A DNA stretch of 64,000 nt from Methanocellales archaeon (GCA_038850275.1 JAWCLZ010000003.1:28194-92193); one strand, 5' to 3'; shown: positions 4,672-64,000, numbered from the stretch's first letter. The notes: generated by a model not told the origin, from the sequence alone. Translations and numbers: made by a program.

Positions 4672-7362
4672 ATGGATTGGTATTCAAAGAGTATAGAAGA
4701 ACTATTTGTATTATTCAACACAAGTAAGCAAGGTATAACTCAAGAGCAGGCTAAGCAAGCTCTTTTGAAATATGGTTTTAATAAATTAAAGGAGAAGCCA
4801 AAGCCTCATCCCATAATTAAATTCATTGGGCAATTCAAGAGCGTGCCAATTTTAATGCTCATTGCCGCTACTTTTATTCTAGTGCTATTAACCATCTTCA
4901 CGCCTGAGAATAGACTCACTGATGCCATTGTAATTTTAATAGTGATTTTTCTAAATGCAATAATGGGCTACATTCAAGAGGCAAGAGCTGAAAAAGCCAT
5001 GGAGGCTTTGAAGAGGCTCACCAGTCCCAAGGCAAAGGTATTGAGAGATGGCGTGGAGAAGGTAATTGATGTCAAAGAAGTTGTACCTGGAGATATTTTA
5101 CTGCTTGAAGAAGGTGATAGAATACCAGCTGATGGTAGAATTTTGGAATCCCATAATTTAGAAGTAGATGAATCTATGCTCACTGGCGAATCCACTACTG
5201 TTAGAAAAGAAGCAGTTTCACTAGCGGGTAAAGTGCCCATTGCAGATCAAGTAAACATGGTTTTCATGGGCACCATAATTACCAGAGGAAGAGGGAAAGC
5301 TATCGCTGTTGCAACTGGTATGGATACAGAGATAGGTAGAATTGCAAGGTTCATTCAAGAAGAGGAGGAAGAGGAAACACCTCTGCAGCGAAGGCTGAAT
5401 TCAATGGGAAAGCAAATTGGAGCAATTGCACTTGTTGCGATGGTAGTGCTCTTCTCAATAGACATGCTAATACCCCCAAGTAATCTAATTGAGGGATTTT
5501 TGCTTGCTGTGAGCCTCGCAGTTGCAATTATTCCGGAGGGACTGCCAATTGTAACCCTAGTTACTCTAGCTGTTGGCATGCAGATTATGGCTAAGAAAAA
5601 CGCGGTCATAAGGAGGTTAATGTGCGTTGAAACCCTAGGCTGCACTACAGTGATCTGCTCAGATAAAACAGGTACGCTAACTAAAAATGAAATGACCCTT
5701 AGAGAAATGCATATCGCTGGAAAGCGCTATCGAGTTACAGGAGAGGGCTATTCCCCAGAAGGGGAGATCTTGAGCGATGGAGAAAAAGCAGACCTCAATG
5801 ATCCATCACTTAAAAGAGCGTTTGAAATCATGGCTCTCTGCAACAATGCACATTTGATAAAAGAAGGGGGAAAGTGGCACGCAGTTGGCGATCCAACTGA
5901 GGCAGCGCTAGTTGCAGCTGTGGGAAAGGCAAAGCTTAACCCCAAGGAATTGCGAGAAAAGCTTCCAAGAATAGAGGAGAAAATTTTCGACCCCAAGAGG
6001 AAGTATATGACAACTATTCACGCTATAGACAGCGAAGGCAAAATTGCTTTTATAAAAGGCGCTCCTGAGGTGCTACTTGAACTGTCGAAATATATTTTGG
6101 AAAATGGGAGAACTAGGGAAATCACTGAGAGCGATAGAAAAGCAATTGAAAATATAAATCTCGAGTTCGCTTCTAAGGCATATCGCGTGCTCGCCATCGG
6201 CTACAAGCAACTTGGGCAGAGTGAAATGAGTGAGATCGAGAAGGACATGACCCTCGTGGGGATACTTGGAATAGCGGATCCACCTAGGAGTGAGGCAAAG
6301 CGAGCAATAGATCAATGCAGAGAAGCAGGGATTAAAGTGGTGATGATAACTGGGGATCAAAAGAGCACTGCAATTGCAGTGGCAAGAGAACTGGGATTGA
6401 TAACTGGAGATGGCAAGGACAAGGTGCTAACTGGCTGGGAGTTGGATCAAATGGATGATGAGGAGTTCAAAAAGATCGCTGGGGAAGTCAGAGTCTACGC
6501 TAGGGTTTCACCTGAGCATAAGATGAAGATCGTGAATGCATTGAAAAGCAGAGGAGAGATAGTGGCAATGACAGGCGATGGCGTGAACGATGCACCCGCG
6601 CTCACCAAATCAGATATAGGAATCTCCATGGGTATCTCTGGCACGGATGTGGCGAAGGAAGCGAGCGATATGGTGCTCATGGATGATAACTTTGCCAGCA
6701 TAGTTGCAGCAGTTGAGGAAGGGAGGAGGATCTATGATAATATTAGAAAATTCATTAGATATCAACTCTCCACCAACGTTGGAGCAATTCTACTGCTTTT
6801 TCTAGCCACAATTCTCGTGCCATATGCAATACCGATGTACCCAGTTCAATTGCTATGGATAAATATAATGATGGATGGACCACCAGCAATTGCACTTGGC
6901 CTAGAGCCAGCTGATAAAGAAATAATGAAGCGCCCCCCTCGGGATCCAGAGGAAAAGATATTATCTAGTGCGATTTTGAAAGCGATCTTCTTGAATGGAT
7001 GTATAATGGGTCTAGGTGCTTTCCTCCTCTTCTACTGGGCCTACTATTTCAGTGGTCATAGCGATGCCGCGAGATATGCTCAAACCACGACTTTCACAGG
7101 CTATGTTATTTATCAAATGTTCAATGTATTCAACTGCCGATCCCTAGAGAGATCTATTTTTAGCATTGGCTTAACTTCAAATAAATTCCTACTTTTAGCT
7201 GTTTCTACTTCAATTTTCCTTCAAGTGTTGGTAGTCTATGTTCCTTTGTTTAATATTCTCTTTCACACCGTTCCCCTTAAACTAGAGGACTGGGTAGTAA
7301 TACTCATAGCTGCTTCTTCGGTTTTAATCCTTGAGGAGATTAAAAAAGCAATTATTCACTAG
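4672..7362 (+). CDS. P-type cation-transporting ATPase (P2/SERCA-like)
   Basis: 896 aa with TGES, DKTGTLT (phosphorylation site), KGAPE and TGDGVNDAPAL motifs, plus about 10 TM helices. Confidence 0.9.
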   Translation: MDWYSKSIEELFVLFNTSKQGITQEQAKQALLKYGFNKLKEKPKPHPIIKFIGQFKSVPILMLIAATFILVLLTIFTPENRLTDAIVILIVIFLNAIMGYIQEARAEKAMEALKRLTSPKAKVLRDGVEKVIDVKEVVPGDILLLEEGDRIPADGRILESHNLEVDESMLTGESTTVRKEAVSLAGKVPIADQVNMVFMGTIITRGRGKAIAVATGMDTEIGRIARFIQEEEEEETPLQRRLNSMGKQIGAIALVAMVVLFSIDMLIPPSNLIEGFLLAVSLAVAIIPEGLPIVTLVTLAVGMQIMAKKNAVIRRLMCVETLGCTTVICSDKTGTLTKNEMTLREMHIAGKRYRVTGEGYSPEGEILSDGEKADLNDPSLKRAFEIMALCNNAHLIKEGGKWHAVGDPTEAALVAAVGKAKLNPKELREKLPRIEEKIFDPKRKYMTTIHAIDSEGKIAFIKGAPEVLLELSKYILENGRTREITESDRKAIENINLEFASKAYRVLAIGYKQLGQSEMSEIEKDMTLVGILGIADPPRSEAKRAIDQCREAGIKVVMITGDQKSTAIAVARELGLITGDGKDKVLTGWELDQMDDEEFKKIAGEVRVYARVSPEHKMKIVNALKSRGEIVAMTGDGVNDAPALTKSDIGISMGISGTDVAKEASDMVLMDDNFASIVAAVEEGRRIYDNIRKFIRYQLSTNVGAILLLFLATILVPYAIPMYPVQLLWINIMMDGPPAIALGLEPADKEIMKRPPRDPEEKILSSAILKAIFLNGCIMGLGAFLLFYWAYYFSGHSDAARYAQTTTFTGYVIYQMFNVFNCRSLERSIFSIGLTSNKFLLLAVSTSIFLQVLVVYVPLFNILFHTVPLKLEDWVVILIAASSVLILEEIKKAIIH

Positions 7363-7544
7363 CCAAGTTCCCTGCCCATTCTTCGCTTCATTCTCTTTAT
7401 CATTGCAATTTGTTCTTGGCAGAGCTTGCAAACTTCTTGAGTGAAGCTCCCGCATTCCTTGCAGAAGGGGGATGCGCAGTATAGGCATTCGATTACCTGT
7501 TCTACTTCCCTTTCACATATCCTGCAAATAGGCAATCCCATCAC
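7359..7544 (-). CDS. Small zinc-ribbon protein
   Basis: 61 aa with four CxxC pairs (CRIC, CLYC, CKEC, CKLC). It is convergent with, and overlaps, the ATPase stop. Confidence 0.35.
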   Translation of the reverse strand: MMGLPICRICEREVEQVIECLYCASPFCKECGSFTQEVCKLCQEQIAMIKRMKRRMGRELG

Positions 7545-7550
7545 ACCAAT

Positions 7551-7922
7551 TTAAGATAAAAGTTTAACCCATTCCACAAGATCTTGACATCTCTCTGGAT
7601 CGCACTCTGCCCTGCAGCCTGCACATGGAGCAATGATATCTCCAGCTATTAGTAAATGATAGTTGGTTTTCCCCAGTTTTTCTTTCTCCTGCTGTTTAAC
7701 TGCAACTATTCTATAAGTTCTAACCCCATGCGCTGTTTCCCACTCCCGCTTAATCAAACCTTTGGATTCAAGAGCTGTAACTAAGCGCGAGCAAGCTCTG
7801 CTATCTATTTTCAATTTCTTCCAAAGCTCATTCTGTAGAATCCCGTTCTTCCTAGCCTTAATAAGCTTTAAAACATCTTCTTCGGTAACCTTTGACTTCA
7901 CTGAGTTTGTTTTAATCTGCAT
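7551..7922 (-). CDS. Winged-helix DNA-binding protein with a C-terminal Cys cluster
   Basis: wHTH-like core (LQNELWKKLKIDSRACSRLVTALESKGLIKRE) followed by a CAGCRAECDPERC tail. Confidence 0.5.
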   Translation of the reverse strand: MQIKTNSVKSKVTEEDVLKLIKARKNGILQNELWKKLKIDSRACSRLVTALESKGLIKREWETAHGVRTYRIVAVKQQEKEKLGKTNYHLLIAGDIIAPCAGCRAECDPERCQDLVEWVKLLS

Positions 7923-7929
7923 GAATACC

Positions 7930-8193
7930 TTATTCCTGCACTGGTATTATTAGCACTATATTATTCCCACGCAATACCACGGATCCCAGATTTCTCTTTT
8001 TCTCTCCATCGACTATTTCAGTTGTATCAGTTAAATATAGATTTAAATAGTCATCTGCACTTTCCAATTTGCCCTCAAGTATATTTTTCTCACCTTTCAT
8101 CTCCACTTGAATTCTGCTGCCAATCAATGTTTGCACTTTCTTATTTGGAAACAATAAAATCCCCCAACTTTTATTTATAATACCTGCTATCAT
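7930..8193 (-). CDS. Sm-like (LSm) archaeal protein
   Basis: Sm1/Sm2 features (IQVEMKGEKNILEGKLESADDYLNLYL and GSVVLRGNNIVLI). Confidence 0.65.
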   Translation of the reverse strand: MIAGIINKSWGILLFPNKKVQTLIGSRIQVEMKGEKNILEGKLESADDYLNLYLTDTTEIVDGEKKRNLGSVVLRGNNIVLIIPVQE

Positions 8194-8262
8194 AAACCTT
8201 TCTCTCGGCTGATTTCAATTTTAGAAAGCTTTTTACTAGATATACAAGTTTATTTATTTTTA

Positions 8263-8538
8263 ATGAGGGTTAAAGTTAAAACTTTTGCCAGCTTCCGGGA
8301 AATAATTGGCAAGCGGGAGGTCGAAGTGGAGTTAAAAGGCAATTCATCAGTCCGCGACCTCCTAGAGGAGCTTTGCAAGCAATACGATCTCCGAGCTCTG
8401 CTCTTCGAGGGGGATGCCCTGCAGAAATATATAAAAATACTTGTTAACGGCGAGGACGTGGTTTTCCTCCAAGGCTTAGATACAAAGCTAAAGAGTGGAG
8501 ATGAAATAGCTCTTTTCCCACCTGTTGCTGGCGGCTAA
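8263..8538 (+). CDS. MoaD/ThiS-type small archaeal modifier protein (SAMP), C-terminal GG
   Basis: 91-aa beta-grasp protein ending in ...FPPVAGG. Confidence 0.7.
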   Translation: MRVKVKTFASFREIIGKREVEVELKGNSSVRDLLEELCKQYDLRALLFEGDALQKYIKILVNGEDVVFLQGLDTKLKSGDEIALFPPVAGG

Positions 8539-8591
8539 AAATACTAAATTAGATAAAGGAGAGGCATAAAATTAAATGAAAGGTGACACCA

Positions 8592-9332
8592 ATGCAGCGC
8601 ATCATCGATTCCCATATCCATGCCTGCCCTATTAATAATCCCATTGAGCGGATTAAAAAAGAACTTAGAGAAGCTAAGATTGAAGAAGCAGTTTTGATAC
8701 CCTGGGTGAGGGATGAAGCGCTAGAGGGCGAGGGATTTGAGCGAGCAAATAGATATGTACTTGAAATTGCAAAGGCTGAGAAGGAAATGAAGTTCTATCC
8801 CTACTGTTCCATAAGTAGAGATTTAAAGCTGCCTGAGAACCACGAGGAATTCTATGGTGCAAAATGGCACTGCCTTGCTGATATCTATCACTCAGGCTGG
8901 GACTGGAGTGAGGTGAAGCAGCTAATTGAGCGCATCTATAGCGCGAGGTTGAATGTGTTAATTGAGGATAAATTTGAATTGGTATGCAAATTCATAAGCA
9001 TGTGCCCGGCTGATTTAACTATAATCATACCACACATGGGGATTCATCCCCACTATGAAGCAGGGGGTTTAATGGTGGATTTAAGAGTGCTTGGAAGAAG
9101 GTGGAAGATTTTAAAGGGATTGAAAAATGTTTATTTTGACACAGCTCTATCATCTGCAGTTATAATCCAAGATTGCATTGGAGAAGTAGGTTTAACAAGA
9201 GTACTCCACGGTTCTGACTCGCCCTTTGGAAGTATTCAGAGAGAGCTTATGCAAACGGATTTTGCATTGATAAAGCCTTATGAAAAAAGAGCAATTTTAT
9301 ATGAAAATGCATCAAGAATATTGAAGAAATAA
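8592..9332 (+). CDS. Amidohydrolase-2-like metal-dependent hydrolase (TIM barrel)
   Basis: N-terminal IDSHIHA metal-binding motif and later His/Asp residues (HGSDSPFG). Confidence 0.5.
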   Translation: MQRIIDSHIHACPINNPIERIKKELREAKIEEAVLIPWVRDEALEGEGFERANRYVLEIAKAEKEMKFYPYCSISRDLKLPENHEEFYGAKWHCLADIYHSGWDWSEVKQLIERIYSARLNVLIEDKFELVCKFISMCPADLTIIIPHMGIHPHYEAGGLMVDLRVLGRRWKILKGLKNVYFDTALSSAVIIQDCIGEVGLTRVLHGSDSPFGSIQRELMQTDFALIKPYEKRAILYENASRILKK

Positions 9333-9334
9333 AT

Positions 9335-9400
9335 GAAATAAAAGAAATAAAATAATAAAAAATAAAAATAAAAGAGATAAAAGAAATAAAACATCAGTCT
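9335..9400. terminator. A/T-rich low-complexity spacer between convergent genes
   Basis: On the minus strand this is a T-rich run directly after the cdc6 stop. Archaeal oligo-T terminators look like this. Confidence 0.3.
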
Positions 9401-9424
9401 TAAACTGTTGCACTTTTCAAATAT

Positions 9425-10549
9425 TTAGCTCTTTAAAAGTTCAAGTACTTCCTCGGGTTCATATTTCAATGTGATTATTCTAGTTTGACCGCGCTCGCCC
9501 TTGCTTGCCCCTTTAACATCGATCAATCTCAAAGCATCGAGTTTATTGACTAATTCATAGAAAATGGTATAGCCAAGTTTTGTCTTCGCTTGAAATTCCT
9601 TATATAAATCACCAGATCTAAATTCCCCCCTTGATTCAGCTAGAATTCTAAGAAGCAATTTTTCTTCATCCTTAAGTGATTTAATTGTGTATGCTAAATG
9701 AACTAGCCTTGATTTCTCATATGCTTTTTCCACGTCCTCTATAGAGATGGTTCTGCTTGCCCTTCGCTCTGCGTTGAAGCCTGCTCTCTTAAAGAGATCT
9801 ATTCCCACCCTCAAGTCAGCTGAGCTCATAACGCAGTCAACCACTTTATCTAGTACTTCATTTGAGACCACGCCAGGGTAGAAACCGTGCTTCACTCTAT
9901 ATGCAAGGATATCTCTAACCTCGTCTCTAGTGTAAAGCGGGAAATATATCTCTTCAGCTTGAAAAATTGACTGCACTCTTGGATCAAGGACTGAATTGAG
10001 ATTTAGCGAGAGATCACTTGAGATCGCTAGCACGCCTATCTTCGCGCCTGGCTGGGTTTCGTGGGCGCGTAGTAGTGAGTACAGCACGTCATTTACTTCT
10101 TGCTCATAGATTAAATAATTCATATCATCGAGAGCAACAATTAAAACCTTCTCCTTCTCCACAAGCTGCTTGGCGATATTTGAGAAGATTTTTTTAAAGG
10201 AAACACCTGAACTCGGCGGGGTGAAGCCAAAGATTGCATGGAAAATCTTGGAGAAAACTGCGTATCTAGTGGAATCAATCTTGCAGTTCACGTGAACTGG
10301 CACAACTTTTTGAGTTACACTTCGAATTTCCTCAAATAATTTTAAAACAGCGCTTGTCTTCCCTGTGCCAGGCGGGCCTAAGAGATAAGCATCAAGTGGT
10401 CTCATTCCGCGAAGCGCTGGCTTGACACTGAATTTGAGTGCTTCCATTTGCTTCTCGCGATGCAGAATATGTTCAGGCAAAAAGTCGAGCTCGAAGTATT
10501 CTTGATTTTTAAATATCGTTTCATCCCACATCAGCATATCTTTGACCAC
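9425..10549 (-). CDS. cdc6: Orc1/Cdc6 replication initiator
   Basis: AAA+ Walker A LLGPPGTGKT, Walker B VALDDMNYL, and a C-terminal winged helix. Confidence 0.9.
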   Translation of the reverse strand: MVKDMLMWDETIFKNQEYFELDFLPEHILHREKQMEALKFSVKPALRGMRPLDAYLLGPPGTGKTSAVLKLFEEIRSVTQKVVPVHVNCKIDSTRYAVFSKIFHAIFGFTPPSSGVSFKKIFSNIAKQLVEKEKVLIVALDDMNYLIYEQEVNDVLYSLLRAHETQPGAKIGVLAISSDLSLNLNSVLDPRVQSIFQAEEIYFPLYTRDEVRDILAYRVKHGFYPGVVSNEVLDKVVDCVMSSADLRVGIDLFKRAGFNAERRASRTISIEDVEKAYEKSRLVHLAYTIKSLKDEEKLLLRILAESRGEFRSGDLYKEFQAKTKLGYTIFYELVNKLDALRLIDVKGASKGERGQTRIITLKYEPEEVLELLKS

Positions 10550-10631
10550 GTAAATTACACCTTTTGGTAAATAGATGCACTACAAATTAAAGCTATCTAC
10601 TTATTATCTAAAAAGCAATATTTGCCCTCGA

Positions 10632-11377
10632 ATGTCAAACTCAAGCAATATACTTAATCTGGTTGCTGCTTGCGCGGTGGTTTTCTGCACTCAACTTGGT
10701 ACCTTCATGCGTGTTCCAGTGATACCACTCTATGCTGAGCAGTGTCTTTTTCACTATATCTCGCTCGCACGCCACTTGAAATCATGCTGATTTATTCAAT
10801 AGCAGGAATTGGCATTGCCTCATTCACTCTTTCAATAATTGCATTTATTGGCGATATCACGAGAATAGGATACCTAGGGAAATCCTATGGCTTGTTCACC
10901 ACTTTTATGCAGATTGGATAGCAACTGGACCAGCGATTGTGGACTCGTGGCAAGCGCAGTTGGATATCGCAGTTCCTTTCTATCTCTGGCTGCGTTATAC
11001 TCTTCGCAGCACTAGCTGCTGAGATATTACTACCCAACCCAGGCTTTTCTCCCAGTTTATGCAAATAAAATTGGAATAAGTATAATTGCAATAGGCTTGA
11101 TTCTCGCATCTCAAGCAGTTGGAAATGGGATCGCCAGGCTGCCGTTTCGCGCTCGTCAGATAGAACTGGCAGGAGGATGCCATTCATATTGCTTGGCTTA
11201 ATCGTAGCTTCGCTATCCGCTGGTTTACTTGCTTCCCTCGCTGGTTGGGCGAGTTAGTATCCACGCGGAATAGAGGTTTTGCTATGGGTGTTTACAGCAC
11301 TCGCTTTTACGGAGGCAGGCTTAATTGGAGCGCTAGGGGTGTATATACTTGCTGCACGCATGCAGAGGAAAAATTGA
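10632..11377 (+). pseudogene. Disrupted MFS transporter gene with at least 5 frameshifts
   Basis: MFS-like TM segments appear in successive different frames, each ending in a stop: MSNSSNILNLVAACAVVFCTQLGTFMRVPVIPLYA, then MLIYSIAGIGIASFTLSIIAFIGDITRIGYLGKSYGLFTTFMQIG, then GLVASAVGYRSSFLSLAALY, then AFLPVYANKIGISIIAIGLILASQAVGNGIARLPF, then RMPFILLGLIVASLSAGLLASLAGW, then EVLLWVFTALAFTEAGLIGALGVYILAARMQ. Confidence 0.6.
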
Positions 11378-25825: not shown

Positions 25826-26023
25826 CTTTATATCTTAAATTTTCACTTCAATTAATTAATAAATGCTTCTGTTGTATTCTAAAAATAATTTACTTAAATT
25901 TACTCTAAATTGCAACATTAAAGATTGCTATATAATTACAATTCACTATCTCGAGAACGAGAATTGCTTACTAAAAACGGCAAATTGATAAAGAAGTATT
26001 AATTAAAATCAATTGGTGGTTTA

Positions 26024-27307
26024 ATGCCTGAAACTTTAAGGATCGAACTTGGAAGAATGAGGATCTCAGGTAATCAAGCAATTGCAAGGGGAGCAATTGA
26101 AGCGGGAGTTCGAGTTACATGTGCTTACCCAGGCGCTCCAATTTCAGATCTACAGAATACCTTTGAATCTCTAGCAAAGAAACCTGGTTATCCTAGAAAT
26201 AATCCCTTTACCATTAAACTAGGGGAAGCATTGGATAAAGCTGGTTATGAACTCGTTGCCAAATGGGGTGAGATGACCAATGAACCTAATGCTCTTTCCT
26301 TTGCACTTGGAAATATAATCTGCAAAGGGGATAAGAAAGCGCGGGAATATATAACCCCTGAGGAGTATGATGTAATATATGGAGAAACAATTTTCTCTAA
26401 GCAGAAGATCTTAACCAAGGATGAAATCCCAGTTGGCTCCAGAGTTATGTGCTCAGTTAAACATCTTGGAGGTAATACCGCTGCAGACGTGGCTAGAACT
26501 CTCATGAATATAATTCCATATCCAGGGGGTCTTGCGATAGCAAGTGGAGACGATCGCCAGGGAACTGCTTCTCAAACAATGCAGGATAATAAAGTGCTAT
26601 TTGCCTGGCATTTTAGAATGCCAACCTTTGAAGTTCACAATCCAGCTAATGCTCATATAACCGTGAGAAATGCCTATAAACTCTGCGAAGAGCTAGGCGT
26701 GCCATTTGCGATAATTGAGAATTACAATCAATCCTATCGAGAGGTTGCCACTGATGTTACCCTTGAGATAGACATGCAAGCAAATAAAAGAAAAAAGGGA
26801 TTCACCCCAGATCCCTATAACCTTGTTACAATTGGACCGCAGATTAGACCTAAGGAGAAGAGACACTGGGAGAAGATTATTCCACTTATGAAGAAGAAGT
26901 TCTCGGATTACTTTGAATTTTTAAACAACGAGGTTATTCGCTATTCCGAGAATCCAACTAAACTAGTTATAGTTAATGGTCCATTTAGAGAGGACTTCAA
27001 CTACATTAGAAGCAGTGAAGCGAGGGAAAGGGAATTCAAGCGGGTTTATAAAAATCCAGTGGTCATAGCCAGCGATTTAGTGTGGCCTCTTCCCAGTGAG
27101 CTATATAAGAAGATCTTCGAGGAAAGCTCCATCGATGAAGTCTATGTCTTCGAAGAAGGCTATGGCAGAGTGATGTACTTCGAGACTCTGGATTTCATAA
27201 ATAGCAATGAATTCAATGTAAAAGTTAGAAATAGAGGCATTCCATATGAGCCTAGAATGTATGAAAGATTCTCCTACGCTGGCCATATAATGGCAAGCGC
27301 AAGTTAG
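26024..27307 (+). CDS. 2-oxoacid/indolepyruvate:ferredoxin oxidoreductase alpha-like subunit (pyrimidine-binding and transketolase-C-like domains)
   Basis: N-terminal GNQAIARGAIEAGVRVTCAYPGAPISD and ASGDDRQGTASQTMQDNK are collinear with the IorA/PorA N-terminal half. Confidence 0.7.
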   Translation: MPETLRIELGRMRISGNQAIARGAIEAGVRVTCAYPGAPISDLQNTFESLAKKPGYPRNNPFTIKLGEALDKAGYELVAKWGEMTNEPNALSFALGNIICKGDKKAREYITPEEYDVIYGETIFSKQKILTKDEIPVGSRVMCSVKHLGGNTAADVARTLMNIIPYPGGLAIASGDDRQGTASQTMQDNKVLFAWHFRMPTFEVHNPANAHITVRNAYKLCEELGVPFAIIENYNQSYREVATDVTLEIDMQANKRKKGFTPDPYNLVTIGPQIRPKEKRHWEKIIPLMKKKFSDYFEFLNNEVIRYSENPTKLVIVNGPFREDFNYIRSSEAREREFKRVYKNPVVIASDLVWPLPSELYKKIFEESSIDEVYVFEEGYGRVMYFETLDFINSNEFNVKVRNRGIPYEPRMYERFSYAGHIMASAS

Positions 27308-27319
27308 CGAGGTGAAAAC

Positions 27320-28243
27320 ATGCAAGCTGTTACCCTTCCTAAACCTGAGGAGAGAACTATTAAAAGACCAGTTGCAAACTGCCCTGGATGCGGTGCAACC
27401 AAGGTTTCCATGGCCTTGAAGGAGGGACTCAGGAGGTATAATAAGGAGAATAAAACTAACTATAAATTGATTTATGTAGCAGATAGAGGCTGCGGCAATC
27501 TTCAAGGTTGGCATGAATATGGAATAGTGGATGCAATTTACAACATGGGCATGGCTCCAATGGTAGCACTAGGAGCTAGATATTCCTCTGGAGGCCCTGA
27601 GAATGGATATATAGTGGTTTGCGCTAGTGGTGATGGTGCTTATAACTTTAATATTAATGGAATGAAGATCGCAGCTCAAGATCCTCCAAGCATGTACATA
27701 ATCTATGATAACTATTCAATTCGCATGACCGGAGGACAACTGGGCCTGAGGAATGACTATGAAGTTGAAGGTAGAGCCATAGGCTTCGATGTTTACTTCA
27801 TAAATCCCTATAGATATAACGAGAACGCAGAGATCTTCAAGAAACTCATAGGGGAATATTTGAATAAAAAGGCAATTATGGTAGTGGCAGATGGCACTTG
27901 CTCTCGAGACCTAAGGGGAATGATCTCAGGCATGGGGATTAAACTAGGTACATTTGTGAGAAGCGAGGGCTGCAAAGACTTAGTGTATCAAAAAGAGAGG
28001 GAAAAAATAGCGAAGGAAAATCCTGAGAAGCTCAAGGAAATGCCTCCATTTAAATGCAGGCTATGTGGAATGCACCTGCGCTGTCAAGCCTTACTGGAGA
28101 ACGACCCAACCCGCTGCTTTAACTGCGGTGCTTGCGCGCATTATGGATGCGAATTTTTAACCTGCCCCGAGCCAAATCTTGCCATGGTTACTGAGCATCC
28201 TAAGAAGTATCAAGAGTTCTTCGAGAAATATGCTAGGAAGTGA
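27320..28243 (+). CDS. OFOR beta-like TPP-binding subunit with a fused C-terminal Cys-rich (ferredoxin-like) tail
   Basis: CPGCG at the N-terminus. TPP motif GDG-x25-YDNYSIRMTGGQ. The tail is FKCRLCGMHLRC...CFNCGACAHYGCEFLTCP. Confidence 0.7.
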   Translation: MQAVTLPKPEERTIKRPVANCPGCGATKVSMALKEGLRRYNKENKTNYKLIYVADRGCGNLQGWHEYGIVDAIYNMGMAPMVALGARYSSGGPENGYIVVCASGDGAYNFNINGMKIAAQDPPSMYIIYDNYSIRMTGGQLGLRNDYEVEGRAIGFDVYFINPYRYNENAEIFKKLIGEYLNKKAIMVVADGTCSRDLRGMISGMGIKLGTFVRSEGCKDLVYQKEREKIAKENPEKLKEMPPFKCRLCGMHLRCQALLENDPTRCFNCGACAHYGCEFLTCPEPNLAMVTEHPKKYQEFFEKYARK

Positions 28244-28935
28244 TCGCAATGAAGCGAGACTTGGTTATTACCTTTCCCTCTATTGGGGGATCTGGATATC
28301 TAACTTTAGCGGAGACAATTGCGGATGCAGCGATTAAAGCAGGCTATTACTCAGTGGTATATCAATGCCGAGGCTTGGCTCAAGCTGAGGGACCAATGTG
28401 CCTCGATACTTGGATAAGTGAGAGAGAAATCCATGGAGCAGTTGCACAAGAGGTTAATTATATGAATGCCTATGAGATGACTGAGATCTGGCGCATGTTC
28501 ACTGAAGCAGGCAAGCAAGTTGAGAGGGTTTACTCAAGGGATCTTACAATTGTTAGTGATTATAGAGTTATAGAGCCAATTGTGGTGATGACAAGCATAA
28601 AAGGGCCTAGGTATTATTCTAGAGAGGAACTACTTGAGCTGATTAAGAACTATAAGATAGCTGGCAATACACCTAGGATAATTCTATATGACTTCTCTAA
28701 GTACAAGCAATATGCCTCTGTTTTAAAAGGGCCTTATTCTTTTGGCGTGATCGTCGCTGATCTCGAGCAGCGGGATGATATCATTAAAATTCCAAAGGAG
28801 GAAGCTAGGGAAGCGGTCTATGAGGGAGCGCCTAAGAAGGGCAAACTTCCTGAGTTGAACGTAGAAGCCTTTGAAAGAGGATATGAAGATCGAAGCAAGG
28901 CGAAGGCAAAAGAAGCAAAGGTAATCATAATTTAA
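28240..28935 (+). CDS. OFOR gamma-like subunit (divergent)
   Basis: VITFPSIGGSGYLTLAETIADAAIKAGY aligns to the gamma-subunit GRGGQG...AA...G region but with GGSG. Its start overlaps the previous stop by 4 nt. Confidence 0.5.
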   Translation: MIAMKRDLVITFPSIGGSGYLTLAETIADAAIKAGYYSVVYQCRGLAQAEGPMCLDTWISEREIHGAVAQEVNYMNAYEMTEIWRMFTEAGKQVERVYSRDLTIVSDYRVIEPIVVMTSIKGPRYYSREELLELIKNYKIAGNTPRIILYDFSKYKQYASVLKGPYSFGVIVADLEQRDDIIKIPKEEAREAVYEGAPKKGKLPELNVEAFERGYEDRSKAKAKEAKVIII

Positions 28936-39694: not shown

Positions 39695-40402
39695 TCAAGC
39701 TACTTTTAAATTAATTTTTGAAATGCCGCAATATAGTTTTGTTCCAGGGAAAGTAATGATGGCTATTTTTCCCTCGCCATAGCTAACATTTAACCCTAGG
39801 GTTTCATTGAAATATCTGCCCCATTCTCTATAGTAATTGCTTTTAATTATCACAGTAGTGTTATTGGTATAAATCGGAGAGGCTAATTTACTGGCTTTTG
39901 CTATTATTCTAATCACTCCTTCTCCAGCCTTTGAGTCCGAGCCAGCTAGCTCTATTACTGGTAAATATGAAACATTGCCCTTTGAAGCTCTAGGTGGCGC
40001 TAGAATTAAGGTGCTTTCCTCATATAAATATTTCACGAAGACAGCGCTGTTTTCATAGGCTATCACACGGTCAGCTAGCTCATACTCCACTGAGCCCAAG
40101 GAATATCGAGTTCCTTCGATTTCTATCCAGCTTTCGTTTACTAGAGAAATGCATCCATCTTTTATTTTTACCTCGCTCGTTCTCGATGGAGCCTGTGCGA
40201 GTGCCACTTCATCGATATTTGCCTTGAGCACTGAAAAGCTCTGCTCCATTTCACTAAGATGCGTCGACTTCTCAGCTGCATCGAGTACAGGCAAGCCATG
40301 GGTGTAAAAAAGCATTCCTGCCATGAGCACTGTGGAGAGTATTAATATATATCCAATTGCATTTGTAAGCGCGTCTTCCATCTTCAACATATTTTGCCTC
40401 AC
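39695..40402 (-). CDS. Pilin-like protein with an N-terminal TM/class-III-like signal (operon gene 5)
   Basis: N-terminus KMEDALTNAIGYILILSTVLMAGMLF, then a beta-rich domain. Start overlaps the stop of the upstream gene. Confidence 0.45.
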   Translation of the reverse strand: MRQNMLKMEDALTNAIGYILILSTVLMAGMLFYTHGLPVLDAAEKSTHLSEMEQSFSVLKANIDEVALAQAPSRTSEVKIKDGCISLVNESWIEIEGTRYSLGSVEYELADRVIAYENSAVFVKYLYEESTLILAPPRASKGNVSYLPVIELAGSDSKAGEGVIRIIAKASKLASPIYTNNTTVIIKSNYYREWGRYFNETLGLNVSYGEGKIAIITFPGTKLYCGISKINLKVA

Positions 40403-41859
40403 GAGCTGTATTTAATGAATACTTGAACGCAGTCCCAAGTTATTTCATCAAGCTTATTTTTCTTCGATATATAGACCCTCAAGTTATAAGCTGTGTTATT
40501 ACTCGGGCTTGCAGTTTCATTGAACCAGTAGGTTTTAGCTCCATTTAGCTCTATGGATTTATCTGAGATCAAGCCTGAAACTTCGAGGTGCAGGTTATCA
40601 CTGCCTCCATTCTGAGTGTGGCTGCTGATATTTATTGCTATATCGACTTCAAAGCCATGCATACCGCTGGGAAAGACTGGTGTAAATGAATAAATTTTTT
40701 CAAGAGAACCGCCTGATGGCGTGAAGCTCGCTGGTTCTAAGTCGCTGCTATTCCAAGTACCTATAATTGGTATAGTTACATTCACTACGTTGGATAGCGC
40801 TCCCTCAACTCCACTGTTGTTAACAACGGTAACTGCGTAGTAATATGTCATTCCCTGAGTTTTAACACTTGAATCTAGGTAGCTTGCGGGTGAGTCAAAC
40901 CAAGAGTTCGCTAGAAGCGTGGCTGTACCTAGATTTGAGTCATTTATGGGCTCGGTGCTTCTATAGATTTTATAGCTTGCCACTGATCCTATGGCTGGCT
41001 TTGTCCATCTAAGAAGTACGTCGGGATATGTTAAAACCACTGCATTTAAATCGCTAACATTACCAGGGGGTAGTCCAATTACTTTATATACCCTTAAATC
41101 ACTCGCAGTGTTGCCAGTTCGATCATAGGCTATGGCTTTAACTCTATATTCCCCATTTGGATATCTCTCGGTATTCCACTCCCATTGATAGGGATATTCA
41201 GCTGTGTAAACAAGGGTATCATTTAAGTAGTACTCCACTTTAACTACATATATATTATCCACTGCATTTACCCTTAGTTTCACTGTTTGTGAAATAGTTG
41301 AGCCATTTGCAGGACTAGGTGCAGTGAATGCGATTACCGGTGGCGTAGTGTCTATTGATGCATCGCATTCTCCAATAGTAATTACGCCAGTTGTGCGATT
41401 GAATCTCAAGATCTTTGTTTTTTCCGCGCTGGATATACTGCAATTTGCCACCGCTATTAATGGACTGATTGGTATTTTCACCTCTATATTGCGATTGACC
41501 TCAGGAACTAGTTTCACTAATCCTCTTTGTATTGCTATGGTGTAGAAGCTACCTCCTGCTTTGCTGGGAATTTCGACTTGAGAGGTTAATTCAATTATTT
41601 CTCCAGCTATGCTCGCGGTATTTATAACTCCATCAAAATCTTGGATTTTTGAGACTAAATCGCTGCCAATTGAACTGAGCTCGCGATATATAGCTATGTC
41701 AGTGGTGCTTATTAATATGCCTTGAAAGGATAGCGCTATGATGGAGAGTAAAACTGCAGAGATAGAGAAGGTTAATAGCAATTCAACTGTTACTGTCAAT
41801 GCATTTTCATCTTTCATATATATCCACCTTGATTTTTTCCTCGAGCTTAAGGATTCCAT
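40399..41859 (-). CDS. Large surface protein with a pilin-like N-terminus and FN3/Ig-like domains (operon gene 4)
   Basis: N-terminus KDENALTVTVELLLTFSISAVLLSII. It has many N-glycosylation sequons, and YKVIGLPPGNVSDLNAVVLTYPDVLLRWTKPAIGSVASYKIYRS is FN3-like. Confidence 0.5.
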   Translation of the reverse strand: MESLSSRKKSRWIYMKDENALTVTVELLLTFSISAVLLSIIALSFQGILISTTDIAIYRELSSIGSDLVSKIQDFDGVINTASIAGEIIELTSQVEIPSKAGGSFYTIAIQRGLVKLVPEVNRNIEVKIPISPLIAVANCSISSAEKTKILRFNRTTGVITIGECDASIDTTPPVIAFTAPSPANGSTISQTVKLRVNAVDNIYVVKVEYYLNDTLVYTAEYPYQWEWNTERYPNGEYRVKAIAYDRTGNTASDLRVYKVIGLPPGNVSDLNAVVLTYPDVLLRWTKPAIGSVASYKIYRSTEPINDSNLGTATLLANSWFDSPASYLDSSVKTQGMTYYYAVTVVNNSGVEGALSNVVNVTIPIIGTWNSSDLEPASFTPSGGSLEKIYSFTPVFPSGMHGFEVDIAINISSHTQNGGSDNLHLEVSGLISDKSIELNGAKTYWFNETASPSNNTAYNLRVYISKKNKLDEITWDCVQVFIKYSS

Positions 41860-51438: not shown

Positions 51439-51996
51439 TTATTTTCTCCTCTTCGCTAAGTCGCAGTAATATTTAAGCATGGAGCTGTGCTCAATCATCG
51501 AGGTGAAAACATAGGCTTCCTCAAGGGTTTTGCCGGCTGCAAAAGTACCATGCCCCTTAACTATAACGCCTTTATGTTCTTTCAGCGCAAGGCTCACGCT
51601 TTTCGCTAGCTCTTTAGAGCCCATGGGTCCTGAGACGATTGGTATTCTATAGAGGAAGTACTGCCCTTCAGTATCCAAGGGTTCCAAGTATTTCCTCCTA
51701 AGAAGTAGAGATTCTATGACTGCATATGGAGAATGAGCGTGTATTATCGCGAGTGCAGAAGTTTGCTTGTATATCTCGCGATGTACAATTGTTTCAGTCG
51801 ATGCTATTAAGTCGAAACTGGTAGGCCTTTCAATCTCCACTTCCACTATTGAATTCTTATCAAGCTCATCTAACTTAGCGCCTGTTCTAGTTATTAAAAT
51901 TTTATTTCCCACGCGAGTGCTTATGTTGCCGAAGTGGCCGCTAACTAAGCCTCTTTCCACAAGTATTTTTCCATATTTTGCTATTTCATGCCACAT
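51439..51996 (-). CDS. Class II aldolase/adducin-family protein
   Basis: Zn-binding pattern HAHSPYA and a FucA-like fold. Confidence 0.7.
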   Translation of the reverse strand: MWHEIAKYGKILVERGLVSGHFGNISTRVGNKILITRTGAKLDELDKNSIVEVEIERPTSFDLIASTETIVHREIYKQTSALAIIHAHSPYAVIESLLLRRKYLEPLDTEGQYFLYRIPIVSGPMGSKELAKSVSLALKEHKGVIVKGHGTFAAGKTLEEAYVFTSMIEHSSMLKYYCDLAKRRK

Positions 51997-53711
51997 TTCT
52001 CAGCCTCGCTTTGAAGTTGAAGTGCTTTAAGCTTATTCAACAGCGGCACTCCTTCAGCACTCCAGCCTCGAATTTCATAGTATTCTCTCAATGCGAGTTC
52101 AAATTCTTTTCTACTCAATCCATCGCTGAAGAATCTCTCAGGCAATTTATCATCTTTACACGTGAAACCTTCTCGAATATTAAAAAGCCGCTCCAGATTC
52201 CAAATTCTCTCCCCAGTTGTAAGTAAATCTTGAGAGGTTATTTCCTCTCCAACTGCAGCGCTCAAAAGGTCAGCATATTCCTCTTCAGTTAATGCTAGAG
52301 ATGAAAATCTGCAGAGTATTAGAGAATCAACTGCAGCTGATAAATTCTGAATCAGCGCCACTAGCGCGGGCTTTCCAGTGAAGGTATTGCGATCTATGAG
52401 CTTTGGCTTGCCGAGGATTTCCATAGCAACCATATAAGCTCGAAGATGGCAAGCACCACGGTTGGAAGTGGCATATGCAAGTGCCTGTCCACATAAACCT
52501 CTAGGGTCATAAGCAGGTATCTCAAGTGCTTTAACAGTCATGCTTGCCTCGGGTTTCTCTTTTGCTCTGCAATAGGCAAGGGATCCTTCGCTCAACATTT
52601 CTCCAACTCCTTTTTTCTCAGCCACTTTTTTCACGAGTTCCCCAAGATTTTTAATCTCGCTGTTATTCAACTCGGCATAGCTCGCTAATGTTGCTCCAGT
52701 GGAAATTGTATCAATTCCATAGTCATTGCAGAGTTCATTCACTTCTATGATTTTTCTTATATCATGATTATTGAGATTGGCGCCAAATGCCCAAATTGTT
52801 TCATATTCAGGTATAGAGAGATTTGAATTCTTAATAACTCTTTTACAGCCAATTGCACATTTAGCGCATGATTTTCTTTCAAGTTCAAAGTTCTCCTTGA
52901 TATATTCACCTGATATTTCTTCAGCGCGTGTGAACCCTCTTTCGCGGAAGTTATTAGCAGGTAGAATTCGCATGTGATTCATTAAATTCACAAGTGCTGG
53001 GGTGCCGTATTCAGCTAGACCCTTGGTTAATGCTTGACTCGCCTTGATTAAGCGTAGCGCTTGGGCTTCAGCGTGGCGGTATTTCTTTTCATTCATAGGT
53101 TTTAAAGATAAATCTATTGAGCTATTCACAATTATTGCTTTAAGTTTTTTAGACCCCATAACCGCACCTAAGCCTCCTCTCCCGCAAGCGTGGTTTCCAT
53201 CGTTGATTATATTAGCAAGTTTGATCAACTTTTCCCCTGCTCTACCAATGCAGGCAACTCGACCTTTTTTCGATAAAATATTAATAGTTTCTTTAACATT
53301 TAGCCCCCAGAGTTTGCTTCCATCTTTTATATCTATATCTTCATTGTGAATCTCAATATAAACTGGTGAATCTGCCATTCCTTTGAATATCAATGAGGCA
53401 TAGCCACAGTGCTTTAATTCTACGCCGAAGAAGCCCCCCGCACTGGAGTCAAAAATCGTATTGGTGAGTGGGGATTTTGAAATCACAGCGTGCCTACCTG
53501 ACATGGGTGCTATACCTGTTAACGGGCCAACTGTGAAGATGATTGCATTTTCAGCTGAAAGTGGATCTATAGCTGGTGGTATGGAATCAAATAATAGCTT
53601 CACCCCTAGCCCTCGCCCGCCTAGGTAGTTTTTAGCGAGTTTTTTATCTAGATTTTTTACCTTGATTTTCCCATTGCTTAAATCTATATCTGCAATTTTA
53701 GCTTCCCACAT
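51981..53711 (-). CDS. aor: Tungsten-containing aldehyde:ferredoxin oxidoreductase
   Basis: N-terminal domain with LGGRGLG, 576 aa, AOR-family middle and C-terminal domains. Confidence 0.85.
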   Translation of the reverse strand: MWEAKIADIDLSNGKIKVKNLDKKLAKNYLGGRGLGVKLLFDSIPPAIDPLSAENAIIFTVGPLTGIAPMSGRHAVISKSPLTNTIFDSSAGGFFGVELKHCGYASLIFKGMADSPVYIEIHNEDIDIKDGSKLWGLNVKETINILSKKGRVACIGRAGEKLIKLANIINDGNHACGRGGLGAVMGSKKLKAIIVNSSIDLSLKPMNEKKYRHAEAQALRLIKASQALTKGLAEYGTPALVNLMNHMRILPANNFRERGFTRAEEISGEYIKENFELERKSCAKCAIGCKRVIKNSNLSIPEYETIWAFGANLNNHDIRKIIEVNELCNDYGIDTISTGATLASYAELNNSEIKNLGELVKKVAEKKGVGEMLSEGSLAYCRAKEKPEASMTVKALEIPAYDPRGLCGQALAYATSNRGACHLRAYMVAMEILGKPKLIDRNTFTGKPALVALIQNLSAAVDSLILCRFSSLALTEEEYADLLSAAVGEEITSQDLLTTGERIWNLERLFNIREGFTCKDDKLPERFFSDGLSRKEFELALREYYEIRGWSAEGVPLLNKLKALQLQSEAEKCGMK

Positions 53712-63477: not shown

Positions 63478-64000
63478 TGCAAGCTAAATTCCAGCCCAAG
63501 AATTTAAGCTTCAAGCAAATGATCGAAGTCGACGCTTGCATGCGCTGCAATGAATGCTTGAAATTCTGCCCAGTTGTGGATATATATGGAAATGAAGTTA
63601 GCCCAAAAGGTAAAATCCACTTCTTCCGAGAGTTGATTAAGTCCAATGATTTAATTGCAAAATTGCTAGGCAGAGGGAAAAATGTAACCGAGGAGGAGGT
63701 CAATAAATATACTCAGAATTTATACATCTGCACCTCTTGCTTGCAATGCAGAGAAGTTTGCGAAGCAGGTATAAATACCGTTCCAATGTGGGAAGCAATG
63801 CGAGCGGATTTAGTTGAGAGAGGCAACGGCCCAATGCCCGCGCATAGAGCAATAAGAGAGAGAGTGGAGAAATTAGGTAATCCCTATAATGAGCCACCAG
63901 AGAAGCGCCTTGCTTGGATTCAGCCTGGGATGAAAATTGCTGAGAAAGCGGATTTGCTTTTCTTCGTTGGCTGCACCTCTGCACTTAGAATGACGATGCT
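63477..64000 (+). CDS. HdrD/DsrK/GlpC-like Fe-S protein (2x[4Fe-4S] plus CCG domain), 5' part; gene runs off the window end
   Basis: CMRCNECLKFCP and CTSCLQCREVCE ferredoxin motifs followed by a CCG-domain start (FFVGCTSA). Absent from the ORF track because it is truncated. Confidence 0.7.
   Translation, partial: MQAKFQPKNLSFKQMIEVDACMRCNECLKFCPVVDIYGNEVSPKGKIHFFRELIKSNDLIAKLLGRGKNVTEEEVNKYTQNLYICTSCLQCREVCEAGINTVPMWEAMRADLVERGNGPMPAHRAIRERVEKLGNPYNEPPEKRLAWIQPGMKIAEKADLLFFVGCTSALRMTM

Follow-up and report, generated by a model that had tools for sequence, protein, structure and literature searches.

A 64,000-nucleotide stretch of the genome of a Methanocellales archaeon (GCA_038850275.1, JAWCLZ010000003.1:28194-92193; hereafter, the window) carries three consecutive genes, g1, g2, and g3, whose products resemble the parts of a 2-oxoacid:ferredoxin oxidoreductase (OFOR). 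This three-gene cassette raises the question of whether it encodes a distinct member of the superfamily or a familiar enzyme whose gene has been broken and, if the former, on which 2-oxoacid such an enzyme would act. In anaerobes, OFORs link central carbon metabolism to low-potential ferredoxin in both directions, and their substrate range sets which acids are fermented or fixed. Their protomers are built from one to four polypeptides with a constant domain set (PMC12337175). From the analyses described here, we propose with a probability of ≈0.6 that g1-g2-g3 encode a single thiamine pyrophosphate (TPP)- and [4Fe-4S]-dependent OFOR of the indolepyruvate:ferredoxin oxidoreductase (IOR) lineage, in which the large subunit, IorA, is split between domains II and VI.

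Domain content and cofactor ligands of the three subunits

An initial, sequence-only reading of this DNA had described a divergent three-gene OFOR-like locus composed of the N-terminal, pyrimidine-binding (Pyr) half of IorA, a TPP subunit with a fused ferredoxin domain, and a gamma-like subunit. Each part of that description is borne out, as the three open reading frames (ORFs) are present (Table 1), they match the corresponding profiles at levels well above chance, and their order is kept across loci. The domain content of the cassette is established and comprises the domain set of the OFOR superfamily, namely, domain I with its glutamate together with domain II, domain VI with a GDG-X24-N motif and four cysteines for a proximal cluster, domain III, and the ferredoxin domain V with eight cysteines.

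Table 1. Coordinates of the cassette and its sequence features, counted from the first nucleotide of the window (aa, amino acids; PP, pyrophosphate-binding)
Feature	Position	Strand	Remarks
AT-rich intergenic region between the HAD-hydrolase gene and g1	25826-26023	.	Carries the g1 ribosome-binding site GGTGG; presumed promoter
g1	26024-27307	+	427-aa ORF; OFOR alpha-type subunit, domain I (Pyr) + domain II, N-terminal half of IorA
YPGAPISD motif, g1 residues 35-42	26126-26149	+	Ala for Thr of canonical YPGTPS(S/T)E
Insertion 1, Pyr domain, g1 residues 56-76 (21 aa)	26189-26251	+	Gap in all canonical IorA of the MAFFT alignment
NEPNA, g1 residues 86-90	26279-26293	+	Invariant Glu87 aligns with the NEK(V)A Glu of IorA
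Insertion 2, Pyr domain, g1 residues 100-136	26321-26431	+	37-residue gap in canonical IorA (MAFFT)
GDDRQGTASQTMQDNK, g1 residues 175-190	26546-26593	+	Counterpart of IorA DDPxxxSSQNEQD(S/N)R, Pro to Arg
g2	27320-28243	+	307-aa ORF; OFOR beta-type subunit, domain VI (PP) fused to ferredoxin domain V, C-terminal half of IorA
CPGC, g2 C21 and C24 (within NCPGCG)	27380-27391	+	Two of four putative proximal-cluster ligands
g2 C58	27491-27493	+	Putative proximal [4Fe-4S] ligand, invariant
TPP/Mg2+ motif GDG-X24-N, GDGAYNFN...YDNYSIRMTGGQ, g2 residues 104-140	27629-27739	+	Invariant residues and TPP_enzyme_C match
g2 C194	27899-27901	+	Putative proximal [4Fe-4S] ligand, invariant
Ferredoxin domain V, g2 residues 218-277	27971-28150	+	Eight invariant Cys for two predicted [4Fe-4S] clusters; weak Fer4 match
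g3	28240-28935	+	231 aa from GTG; domain III (gamma/IorB-type, presumed CoA-binding) subunit
GGSG glycine-rich loop, g3 residues 16-19	28285-28296	+	Replaces GGQG

In profile searches, g1 matches the NCBIfam IOR_alpha model TIGR03336 (E = 1.3e-26, 93.1 bits, model positions 69-313), and no Pfam domain is found above threshold, POR_N reaching only E = 0.025 over the start of the model. The AlphaFold2 model of g1, built from a family alignment (pLDDT 84, pTM 0.89), finds its best folds in the Protein Data Bank (PDB) among the alpha subunit of Magnetococcus marinus 2-oxoglutarate:ferredoxin oxidoreductase (OGOR), the alpha subunit of oxalate oxidoreductase, and the N terminus of pyruvate:ferredoxin oxidoreductase (PFOR). 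Insertion 1 is modeled as helical, with a helix at residues 61-73 at high pLDDT, and insertion 2 as ordered strand and helix elements. By analogy with established TPP-enzyme chemistry, Glu87 of g1 is presumably the TPP-activating glutamate.

Two motifs near the predicted active site set g1 apart. The first reads YPGAPIS(D/E) in 104 of 105 family members and YPGAPFSE in the other, so that the alanine is present in all 105; a threonine occupies this position of YPGTPS in 127 of the 139 nearest canonical IOR-type proteins. The second, the block GDDRQGTxSQTMQDNK (x being Ala or Ser), is invariant among family g1 proteins, as is Glu87, and canonical sequences read DDP at the site of the DDR. In PFOR, Thr31 of the equivalent YPITP motif contacts the substrate carboxylate. 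Because every family member departs from PFOR at these substrate-contact residues, with Ala for Thr and DDR for DDP, the changes plausibly remodel substrate binding.

The match of g2 to Pfam TPP_enzyme_C exceeds the cut-off (E = 9e-9), and a weaker match covers positions 349-469 of the IOR_alpha model (25.2 bits). Its AlphaFold2 model, likewise built from a family alignment (pLDDT 76), is closest to the beta subunits of Sulfolobus tokodaii OFOR, Helicobacter pylori Oor (OorB), and M. marinus OGOR, and the folds of both g1 and g2 are thereby established as OFOR folds. The segment SGDG...YDNYSIRMTGGQ spans residues 103-140, within which G104, D105, G106, N131, and RMTGGQ are invariant across 24 diverse family members. 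Conservation of the cofactor ligands is equally clear: 12 cysteines are invariant in the same 24 sequences (C21, C24, C58, C194, C218, C246, C249, C255, C266, C269, C272, and C277). In canonical IorA, the counterparts of C21, C24, C58, and C194 are the CxGC, DIGC, and xxC positions, and we infer from this correspondence that the four bind a proximal [4Fe-4S] cluster. The remaining eight have one-to-one counterparts in two further canonical IorA motifs, CxxCxxCx5CP and CxxCxxCxxxCP. These eight include the cysteines of the cysteine-rich tail, with CRLC...C at residues 246-255 and CFNCGACAHYGC at residues 266-277, and a helical 25-residue insertion separates Cys1 (C218) from Cys2 (C246) of the first ferredoxin motif. 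All of the motifs quoted in the sequence-only reading are present, although the last cysteine of the window's LTCP (C282) is not kept across the family.

The third subunit, g3, matches the Pfam POR family PF01558 well above its cut-off (E = 1.6e-11, 45.1 bits versus 27.4), which marks it as gamma-like, as had been suggested; the alternative that it is unrelated to gamma subunits is not what we see. Its best NCBIfam matches are the IorB models, at scores far under their cut-offs (28.3 versus 205.8 bits for TIGR03334 and 32 versus 274 for NF004915). The exchange of the hallmark GGQG for GGSG, to which the sequence-only reading had drawn attention, is a true family trait, invariant in 15 diverse members. 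Glu87 of g1, the GDG-X24-N motif and the 4 + 8 cysteines of g2, and the glycine loop of g3 thus do not vary between the archaeal and the bacterial members.

Relation to canonical IorA and the division of the large subunit

IOR was first described from Pyrococcus furiosus (Mai and Adams 1994, as cited in PMC4641369). The canonical IorA sequences P0206 and P0212 show the Pfam order POR_N, PFOR_II, TPP_enzyme_C, and a C-terminal Fer4 dicluster. When concatenated, g1 and g2 remain colinear over their whole length in a MAFFT alignment with ten sequences of canonical IorA, all 12 cysteines included, and the break between them falls between domain II and domain VI. Because canonical IorA has the same C-terminal Fer4 dicluster and the alignment is colinear, the ferredoxin tail is inherited and not a newly acquired substitute for a delta subunit. 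Judged by this comparison, the order of alpha, beta with ferredoxin, and gamma is likewise an inheritance from iorA-iorB, and what is new is the fission of IorA. The sequence-only reading had regarded both the gene order and the ferredoxin fusion as atypical, mostly because it compared them with the gamma-delta-alpha-beta operons of pyruvate oxidoreductases (POR) instead of with iorAB, and it had suggested that the tail could replace a separate delta ferredoxin. Neither suggestion holds, as canonical IorA has the same architecture and the same 12 cysteines; of the layout it called unusual, the IorA fission and the extreme divergence stand, and the order and fusion are ordinary.

The cassette shares with IorA/IorB (TIGR03336/TIGR03334) the best profiles of g1 and g3, the gene order, a large subunit arranged as I-II-VI-V with domain III set apart on the small subunit, the placement of the ferredoxin domain C-terminal to the TPP part, the 12 cysteines, the GDG-N motif, and the activating glutamate. 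It differs in that the large subunit, a single chain of ≈600-650 aa in IOR proper, is encoded by two cistrons in all loci. Scores also fall below the equivalog cut-offs (93.1 bits for g1 and 25.2 for g2 versus 650.9; 28.3 for g3 versus 205.8), and the IOR signature of YPGTPS(S/T)E plus DDPxxxSSQNEQD is missing. In its place are YPGAPIS for YPGTPS, DDR for DDP, and GGSG for GGQG, together with insertions of 21 and 37 aa in the Pyr domain and of 25 aa in the ferredoxin domain, and the neighborhoods lack a link to aromatic amino acids.

Other OFOR architectures are more distant. The fused IOR proteins of ≈1100-1170 aa (PRK13030 type) belong to the same IOR branch, with g1 profile scores of 80-86 bits and a weak match of g3 to their domain III region, but they represent the opposite trend toward a single chain, whereas no form of the IOR branch is more fragmented than the cassette. 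The four-subunit archaeal POR/VOR/KOR enzymes, such as Methanosarcina acetivorans PFOR (9bt4), share the superfamily, the cofactors, and the separate alpha, beta, and gamma subunits, and the g1 fold fits 9bt4_A. Their ferredoxin, however, is a separate delta subunit in the order gamma-delta-alpha-beta, whereas the cassette has no delta gene and runs alpha, beta with the ferredoxin fused to its C terminus, and gamma; the sequence similarity is marginal. Fused PFOR (6cin, 1b0p) is also among the fold matches of g1, but it is of another lineage, with the domain order I-II-III-V-VI in one chain. Oxalate oxidoreductase of Moorella thermoacetica (5c4i) is, like the cassette, a three-subunit OFOR and is among the best structural matches of g1, and we found no specific sequence relationship between the two. 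In oxalate oxidoreductase, the ferredoxin domain is fused to domain III and not to beta, and no CoA is used. PDB sequence searches with single proteins and family profiles returned only marginal matches to OFOR alpha subunits and generic TPP domains and no IOR-type structure, and we found nothing specific in the literature on a split or three-subunit IOR or on the cassette family.

The division of IorA could in principle be an artifact, in which g1 and g2 are really one ordinary iorA gene that a frameshift, a mistake in sequencing, or the recoding of a stop codon makes look interrupted. In the window, g1 ends with a TAG that is followed after 12 nt by g2 in the same reading frame (27305-27322), and a tblastn search with canonical IorA returns one high-scoring segment pair (26069-28156) that passes straight through this TAG. 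Across 73 non-redundant loci, however, the g1 stop is TAA in 38, TGA in 33, and TAG in 2, and the frame of g2 relative to that of g1 is 0, 1, or 2 in 32, 24, and 17 loci, respectively. The intergenic gaps are clustered, most of them measuring -8 or +12 to +16 nt. A separate ribosome-binding site serves g2, and the split is common to archaeal and bacterial clades. Because all three stop codons and all three frames occur, a frameshift can be given almost no weight; the split is natural, and the frameshifted iorAB that the sequence-only reading had named as a refutation was not found.

Interrupted IorA genes of this artifactual kind do exist elsewhere. Three loci (L046, L047, and L048) were considered as further natural split operons and rejected, L046 and L048 being canonical IorA genes with one in-frame TGA (L046, 1220-1290; L048, 1298-2950). 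Because this single TGA sits exactly at the conserved glycine of GDxGCYxxG (GD(I/R)GCYxxG), it indicates either UGA-to-Gly recoding, as when genes of a genetic code 25-type organism are called with the standard code by mistake, or an error. Many other matches of 340-460 aa end in unconserved, often Arg/Pro-rich tails that resemble frameshifts, and no second genuine IorA fission was found among the mid-length matches to the IorA N terminus. TGA artifacts of this type swell database counts of apparent ≈400-aa "IorA-N" proteins.

Distribution, isolation, and genomic surroundings

The operon structure is established across the family, with the g1-g2-g3 order kept in every sufficiently long locus (45 genome or contig loci and 80 metagenome loci, about 130 in all). 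Its phylogenetic isolation is equally so. Searched against 1.84 billion cluster representatives, the g1 profile recovers a single full-length member of the family, which scores 788 bits, and some fragments; behind it come canonical IorA (600-650 aa) and fused IOR (≈1100 aa), which score at most 95 bits and cover only profile positions ≈11-55 and ≈132 onward, skipping the insertion region (≈55-131). Word-indexed searches yielded 136 g1 clusters and 80 g2 clusters at 90% identity, all from metagenomes or metagenome-assembled genomes (MAGs).

Among named genomes, the archaeal carriers are MAGs of Methanocellales-like organisms (84-96% identical to the window), some from hot springs with near-identical cassettes, and the bacterial carriers are many MAGs of Desulfobacterales, Syntrophobacterales, or "Deltaproteobacteria" plus one single-amplified genome (SAG) (50-59% identity to the window). 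Most cassette loci come from Desulfobacterales and Syntrophobacterales MAGs, and the Methanocellales-like archaea form a small clade that includes the window. The bacterial carriers include Eth-SRB2, a partner in an ethane consortium, and none of the named genomes found is an isolate; the hosts are thus confined to uncultured archaea and to bacteria that reduce sulfate or live syntrophically. Between archaea and bacteria, identity is ≈57% for g1, ≈53% for g2, and ≈44% for g3, and purifying selection is strong. In a neighbor-joining tree of g1 plus g2, the archaeal and bacterial clades are reciprocally monophyletic and separated from canonical IorA by a long stem. This topology implies that the whole cassette passed between the domains after the family arose. 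In the bacterial branch that diverges deepest, the cassette is flanked by fragments of phage integrases (L003, 16613-17150; L050, 9219-9740), a hint of mobility that is consistent with the three genes moving as a unit.

The bacterial neighborhoods consist of regulators and housekeeping genes, and no conserved metabolic partner emerged from them. A sigma-54 enhancer-binding protein is encoded directly 5' on the same strand in 28 of the 78 loci with enough flank, its sensor domain varying by lineage between PAS (in a 738-aa or 458-aa protein) and PilZ. Seven Desulfobacterales loci have a perfect TGGCAC-N5-TTGCT 113-136 nt 5' of g1. As a universal trait, a sigma-54 promoter was rejected, since it is confined to this Desulfobacterales subgroup and two near-matches, and no such site was found 5' of g1 in archaeal loci. 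These data suggest that the bacterial operon is commonly under a sigma-54 enhancer-binding protein, which speaks for conditional expression and is silent on the substrate. Other recurrent neighbors encode GAF-GAF proteins, receiver domains, Usp, PrkA/YeaH, PFOR, a lytic transglycosylase, Etf, ApbE, and cyclopropane fatty acid synthase. A divergently transcribed canonical fused PFOR adjoins the cassette in 26 bacterial loci, mainly in the Desulfobacterales-type context.

Three further features of these bacterial loci deserve mention. Directly 3' of g3, a 128-aa cysteine-rich ORF without a Pfam match is conserved in L013 (9674-10060) and 21 other Desulfobacterales-type loci (22 in all); a role in maturation or as a small redox partner is possible. 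In 18 Syntrophobacterales-type loci (e.g., L019, 9670-11183; L051, 4635-5702), the cassette is accompanied by a ≈350-aa GAF-GAF protein without an output domain, sometimes together with a stand-alone receiver. In one bacterial lineage (L052-L055; e.g., L052, 6991-10529), a starvation-associated PrkA/DUF444 (YeaH) module lies directly 3' of the cassette and a PAS sigma-54 activator 5' of it.

In the window itself, inspection of the sequence shows ribosome-binding sites upstream of both g1 (GGTGG) and g2 (GAGGTG). The GTG of g3 at 28240 overlaps the g2 stop, and an ATG at 28249 has AGGAAG 8 nt 5' of it; because this site is better placed and the orthologs begin at the corresponding methionine, ATG 28249 is probably the true start. 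The window neighbors are housekeeping genes, comprising a divergent HAD hydrolase, TatAC, FtsZ, Usp, Hsp20, PurE, tyrosyl-tRNA synthetase, Mtd, a CDF transporter, and NadE; the divergent HAD gene 5' of g1 is also kept in the closest archaeal loci. No further OFOR genes were found within the 64-kb window. Farther away, on the minus strand, a 576-aa ORF (51981-53711) fits the aldehyde:ferredoxin oxidoreductase (AOR) model over its N-terminal ≈230 residues only and is either a divergent or a truncated AOR-family protein, and a 486-aa ORF (40399-41859) has no NCBIfam match at E ≤ 1e-5. At the extreme end of the window (63537-63995) lies a CCG/Fer4 (GlcF-like) coding fragment with 33% identity to a cassette-adjoining CCG protein of another archaeal locus, L006.

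Substrate, proposed mechanism, and biological meaning

The substrate lead comes from archaeal relatives whose g1 is 85-89% identical to that of the window. In L006 and L007/L049, genes for SucC, SucD, an acyl-CoA carboxyltransferase (PF01039), biotin carboxylase, and a biotin carboxyl carrier protein (BCCP) lie directly 5' of the cassette on the same strand, with methylmalonyl-CoA mutase, MeaB, a B12-binding subunit, an adenosyltransferase, and a glyoxalase-fold protein farther 5'. On the opposite strand 3' of the cassette, the same loci encode a homolog of the LarA-type 2-hydroxyacid racemase, a CCG/Fer4 protein, and a GlcD-like FAD-linked oxidase. In L082, a PAS histidine kinase and a LuxR-type response regulator precede the cassette, and a fused methylmalonyl-CoA mutase, a carboxyltransferase, an HMGL-like/PYC_OADA/biotinyl protein, and SucC follow it on the same strand. 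The carboxyltransferase and biotinyl protein of L082 match the make-up of methylmalonyl-CoA:pyruvate transcarboxylase. In a third kind of neighborhood, L057 of the archaeal clade (6058-10785) has 3' on the same strand an Asp/Glu-racemase-family gene, an FAD-linked oxidase, EtfB, and an EtfA with an N-terminal 2x[4Fe-4S] domain, the same architecture as the lactate dehydrogenase/Etf complex LctBCD. LctBCD oxidizes lactate to pyruvate only if given reduced ferredoxin (PMC5861303).

As an observation in its own right, L006 (855-13401), L049 (1-16789), and L082 (13648-21281), which are Methanocellales-like and unclassified archaeal contigs, contain a full methylmalonyl-CoA pathway island adjoining the cassette, which is unusual among relatives of methanogens, and the glyoxalase-fold protein of these islands is an epimerase candidate. 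Syntrophobacterales and Desulfobacterales, for their part, belong to groups that use the methylmalonyl-CoA pathway.

Common to the archaeal contexts are a predicted 2-hydroxyacid dehydrogenase with a racemase, in two independent arrangements, and a propionyl/methylmalonyl-CoA pathway, in two different gene sets. Because pyruvate and 2-oxobutyrate are the 2-oxoacids at hand in both kinds of context, we favor, at somewhat less than even odds, a short-chain 2-oxoacid derived from a 2-hydroxyacid or linked to propionyl-CoA, i.e., pyruvate and/or 2-oxobutyrate, as the substrate. In the enzyme that we propose, g1, g2, and g3 would form a heterotrimer, probably a dimer of trimers, with the 2-oxoacid bound at the interface of the g1 Pyr and g2 PP domains. 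The TPP ylide, activated by Glu87 of g1, would attack C2, and CO2 would be released. Two electrons would then pass singly from the proximal cluster (g2 C21/C24/C58/C194) to the two clusters of the ferredoxin tail and on to an external ferredoxin, and CoA bound by g3 would accept the acyl group in a reaction that is reversible in principle. With pyruvate or 2-oxobutyrate, reduced ferredoxin and acetyl-CoA or propionyl-CoA could thus be supplied to lactate or propionate-type metabolism. Activity, CoA dependence, and substrate are inferred, the retention and conservation of domain III speaking for the use of CoA.

Several observations weigh against this model. The change from GGQG to GGSG in g3 leaves CoA binding presumptive, and the nearest characterized family acts on arylpyruvates. 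The metabolic neighborhoods are limited to three of about five archaeal context types; neither the closest relatives of the window nor any bacterial locus has them, and the 64-kb window contains no carboxyltransferase, biotin carboxylase, BCCP, LarA, or GlcD. The PFOR that stands beside the cassette in 26 loci could mean redundancy instead of a shared function, and all members come from MAGs, SAGs, or metagenomes.

The cassette could alternatively be an ordinary IOR with IorA merely split, acting on indole-, phenyl-, or 4-hydroxyphenylpyruvate in the catabolism of aromatic amino acids or in anabolism from aryl acids. The top curated models for g1 and g3 are IorA and IorB, the domain order is that of iorAB, and a tyrosyl-tRNA synthetase gene lies 1.6 kb 3' of the cassette in the window, a weak link. 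In Desulfovibrionales, moreover, canonical iorAB is also co-transcribed with the gene for a sigma-54 enhancer-binding protein (PMC4641369). Against this stand scores that are 7- to 25-fold under the equivalog cut-offs (93 and 25 versus 651 bits, 28 versus 206 bits), the distance of the family (788 bits) from even the best-scoring canonical IorA (95 bits), and the alteration in all members of the signature motifs near the active site. Neither an aminotransferase nor an aryl-acetate-CoA ligase is a conserved neighbor, and the informative archaeal contexts concern lactate-type and propionyl/methylmalonyl-CoA metabolism. We therefore consider an ordinary IOR, and with it an arylpyruvate substrate, unlikely. 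Some other 2-oxoacid, or a CoA-independent reaction as in oxalate oxidoreductase, might suit the deep isolation of the family, its two large Pyr insertions, its altered substrate-side motifs and domain III glycine loop, and bacterial contexts made up of sensors and stress genes only (PAS/PilZ enhancer-binding proteins, GAF-GAF, Usp, and PrkA). Nothing indicates a particular alternative substrate, however, the conserved domain III argues for CoA use, and the archaeal contexts read most simply as pyruvate or 2-oxobutyrate metabolism, so that a substrate outside the short-chain and aryl classes appears improbable as well. Finally, g2 weakly matches the beta subunits of phosphonopyruvate/sulfopyruvate decarboxylase (PDB 9iz3_B, E = 1.4e-4), which might point to a non-redox split alpha/beta TPP decarboxylase of this type with an accessory protein. 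Such matches span only the generic PP domain, whereas domain II, a domain III subunit, and 12 invariant cysteines in OFOR/ferredoxin positions are retained and the fold neighbors are OFOR subunits, which makes a decarboxylase highly improbable.

Returning to the proposed OFOR of IOR lineage, one evolutionary account, which we offer tentatively and hold to be doubtful in its entirety, is that the family is an IOR offshoot re-tooled for small 2-oxoacids through the fission of IorA, the two insertions, the loss of the substrate-binding threonine, the new arginine beside the DD motif, and the altered CoA loop. It would then be an independent, convergent route to a PFOR-like function, and if the inference from the neighborhoods holds, its physiological role would be the same as that of the fused PFOR. 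In uncultured Methanocellales-like archaea, the enzyme would reduce ferredoxin in partnership with the methylmalonyl-CoA pathway and with 2-hydroxyacid dehydrogenases linked to Etf or FAD. Desulfobacterales and Syntrophobacterales would use it as an auxiliary enzyme under sigma-54 control, and it would have been exchanged between the domains as a self-contained three-gene cassette.

The cassette represents an unrecognized OFOR subfamily of IOR ancestry, annotated as hypothetical or mislabeled as IOR through COG transfer, and its chemistry is expected to be conventional. The g1 protein is 100% identical to the NCBI "hypothetical protein" QXJ68_02090 of a Methanocellales MAG, and JGI labels it, via COG, "indolepyruvate oxidoreductase alpha." Because g1 has no Pfam match above threshold and bears these labels, reconstructions of metabolism in syntrophs, in sulfate reducers from marine sediments, and in Methanocellales-like archaea from hot springs either miss the cassette or misassign it to aromatic amino acid metabolism. 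If pyruvate or 2-oxobutyrate is indeed the substrate, the cassette would be a fifth structural solution for the oxidation of short-chain 2-oxoacids, it would mean that the substrate class can switch inside the IOR branch, and it would provide a marker enzyme of lactate or propionate-type metabolism in uncultured archaea. The cassette is also a clean natural case of a subunit that has split, in a superfamily known more for fusing its subunits.

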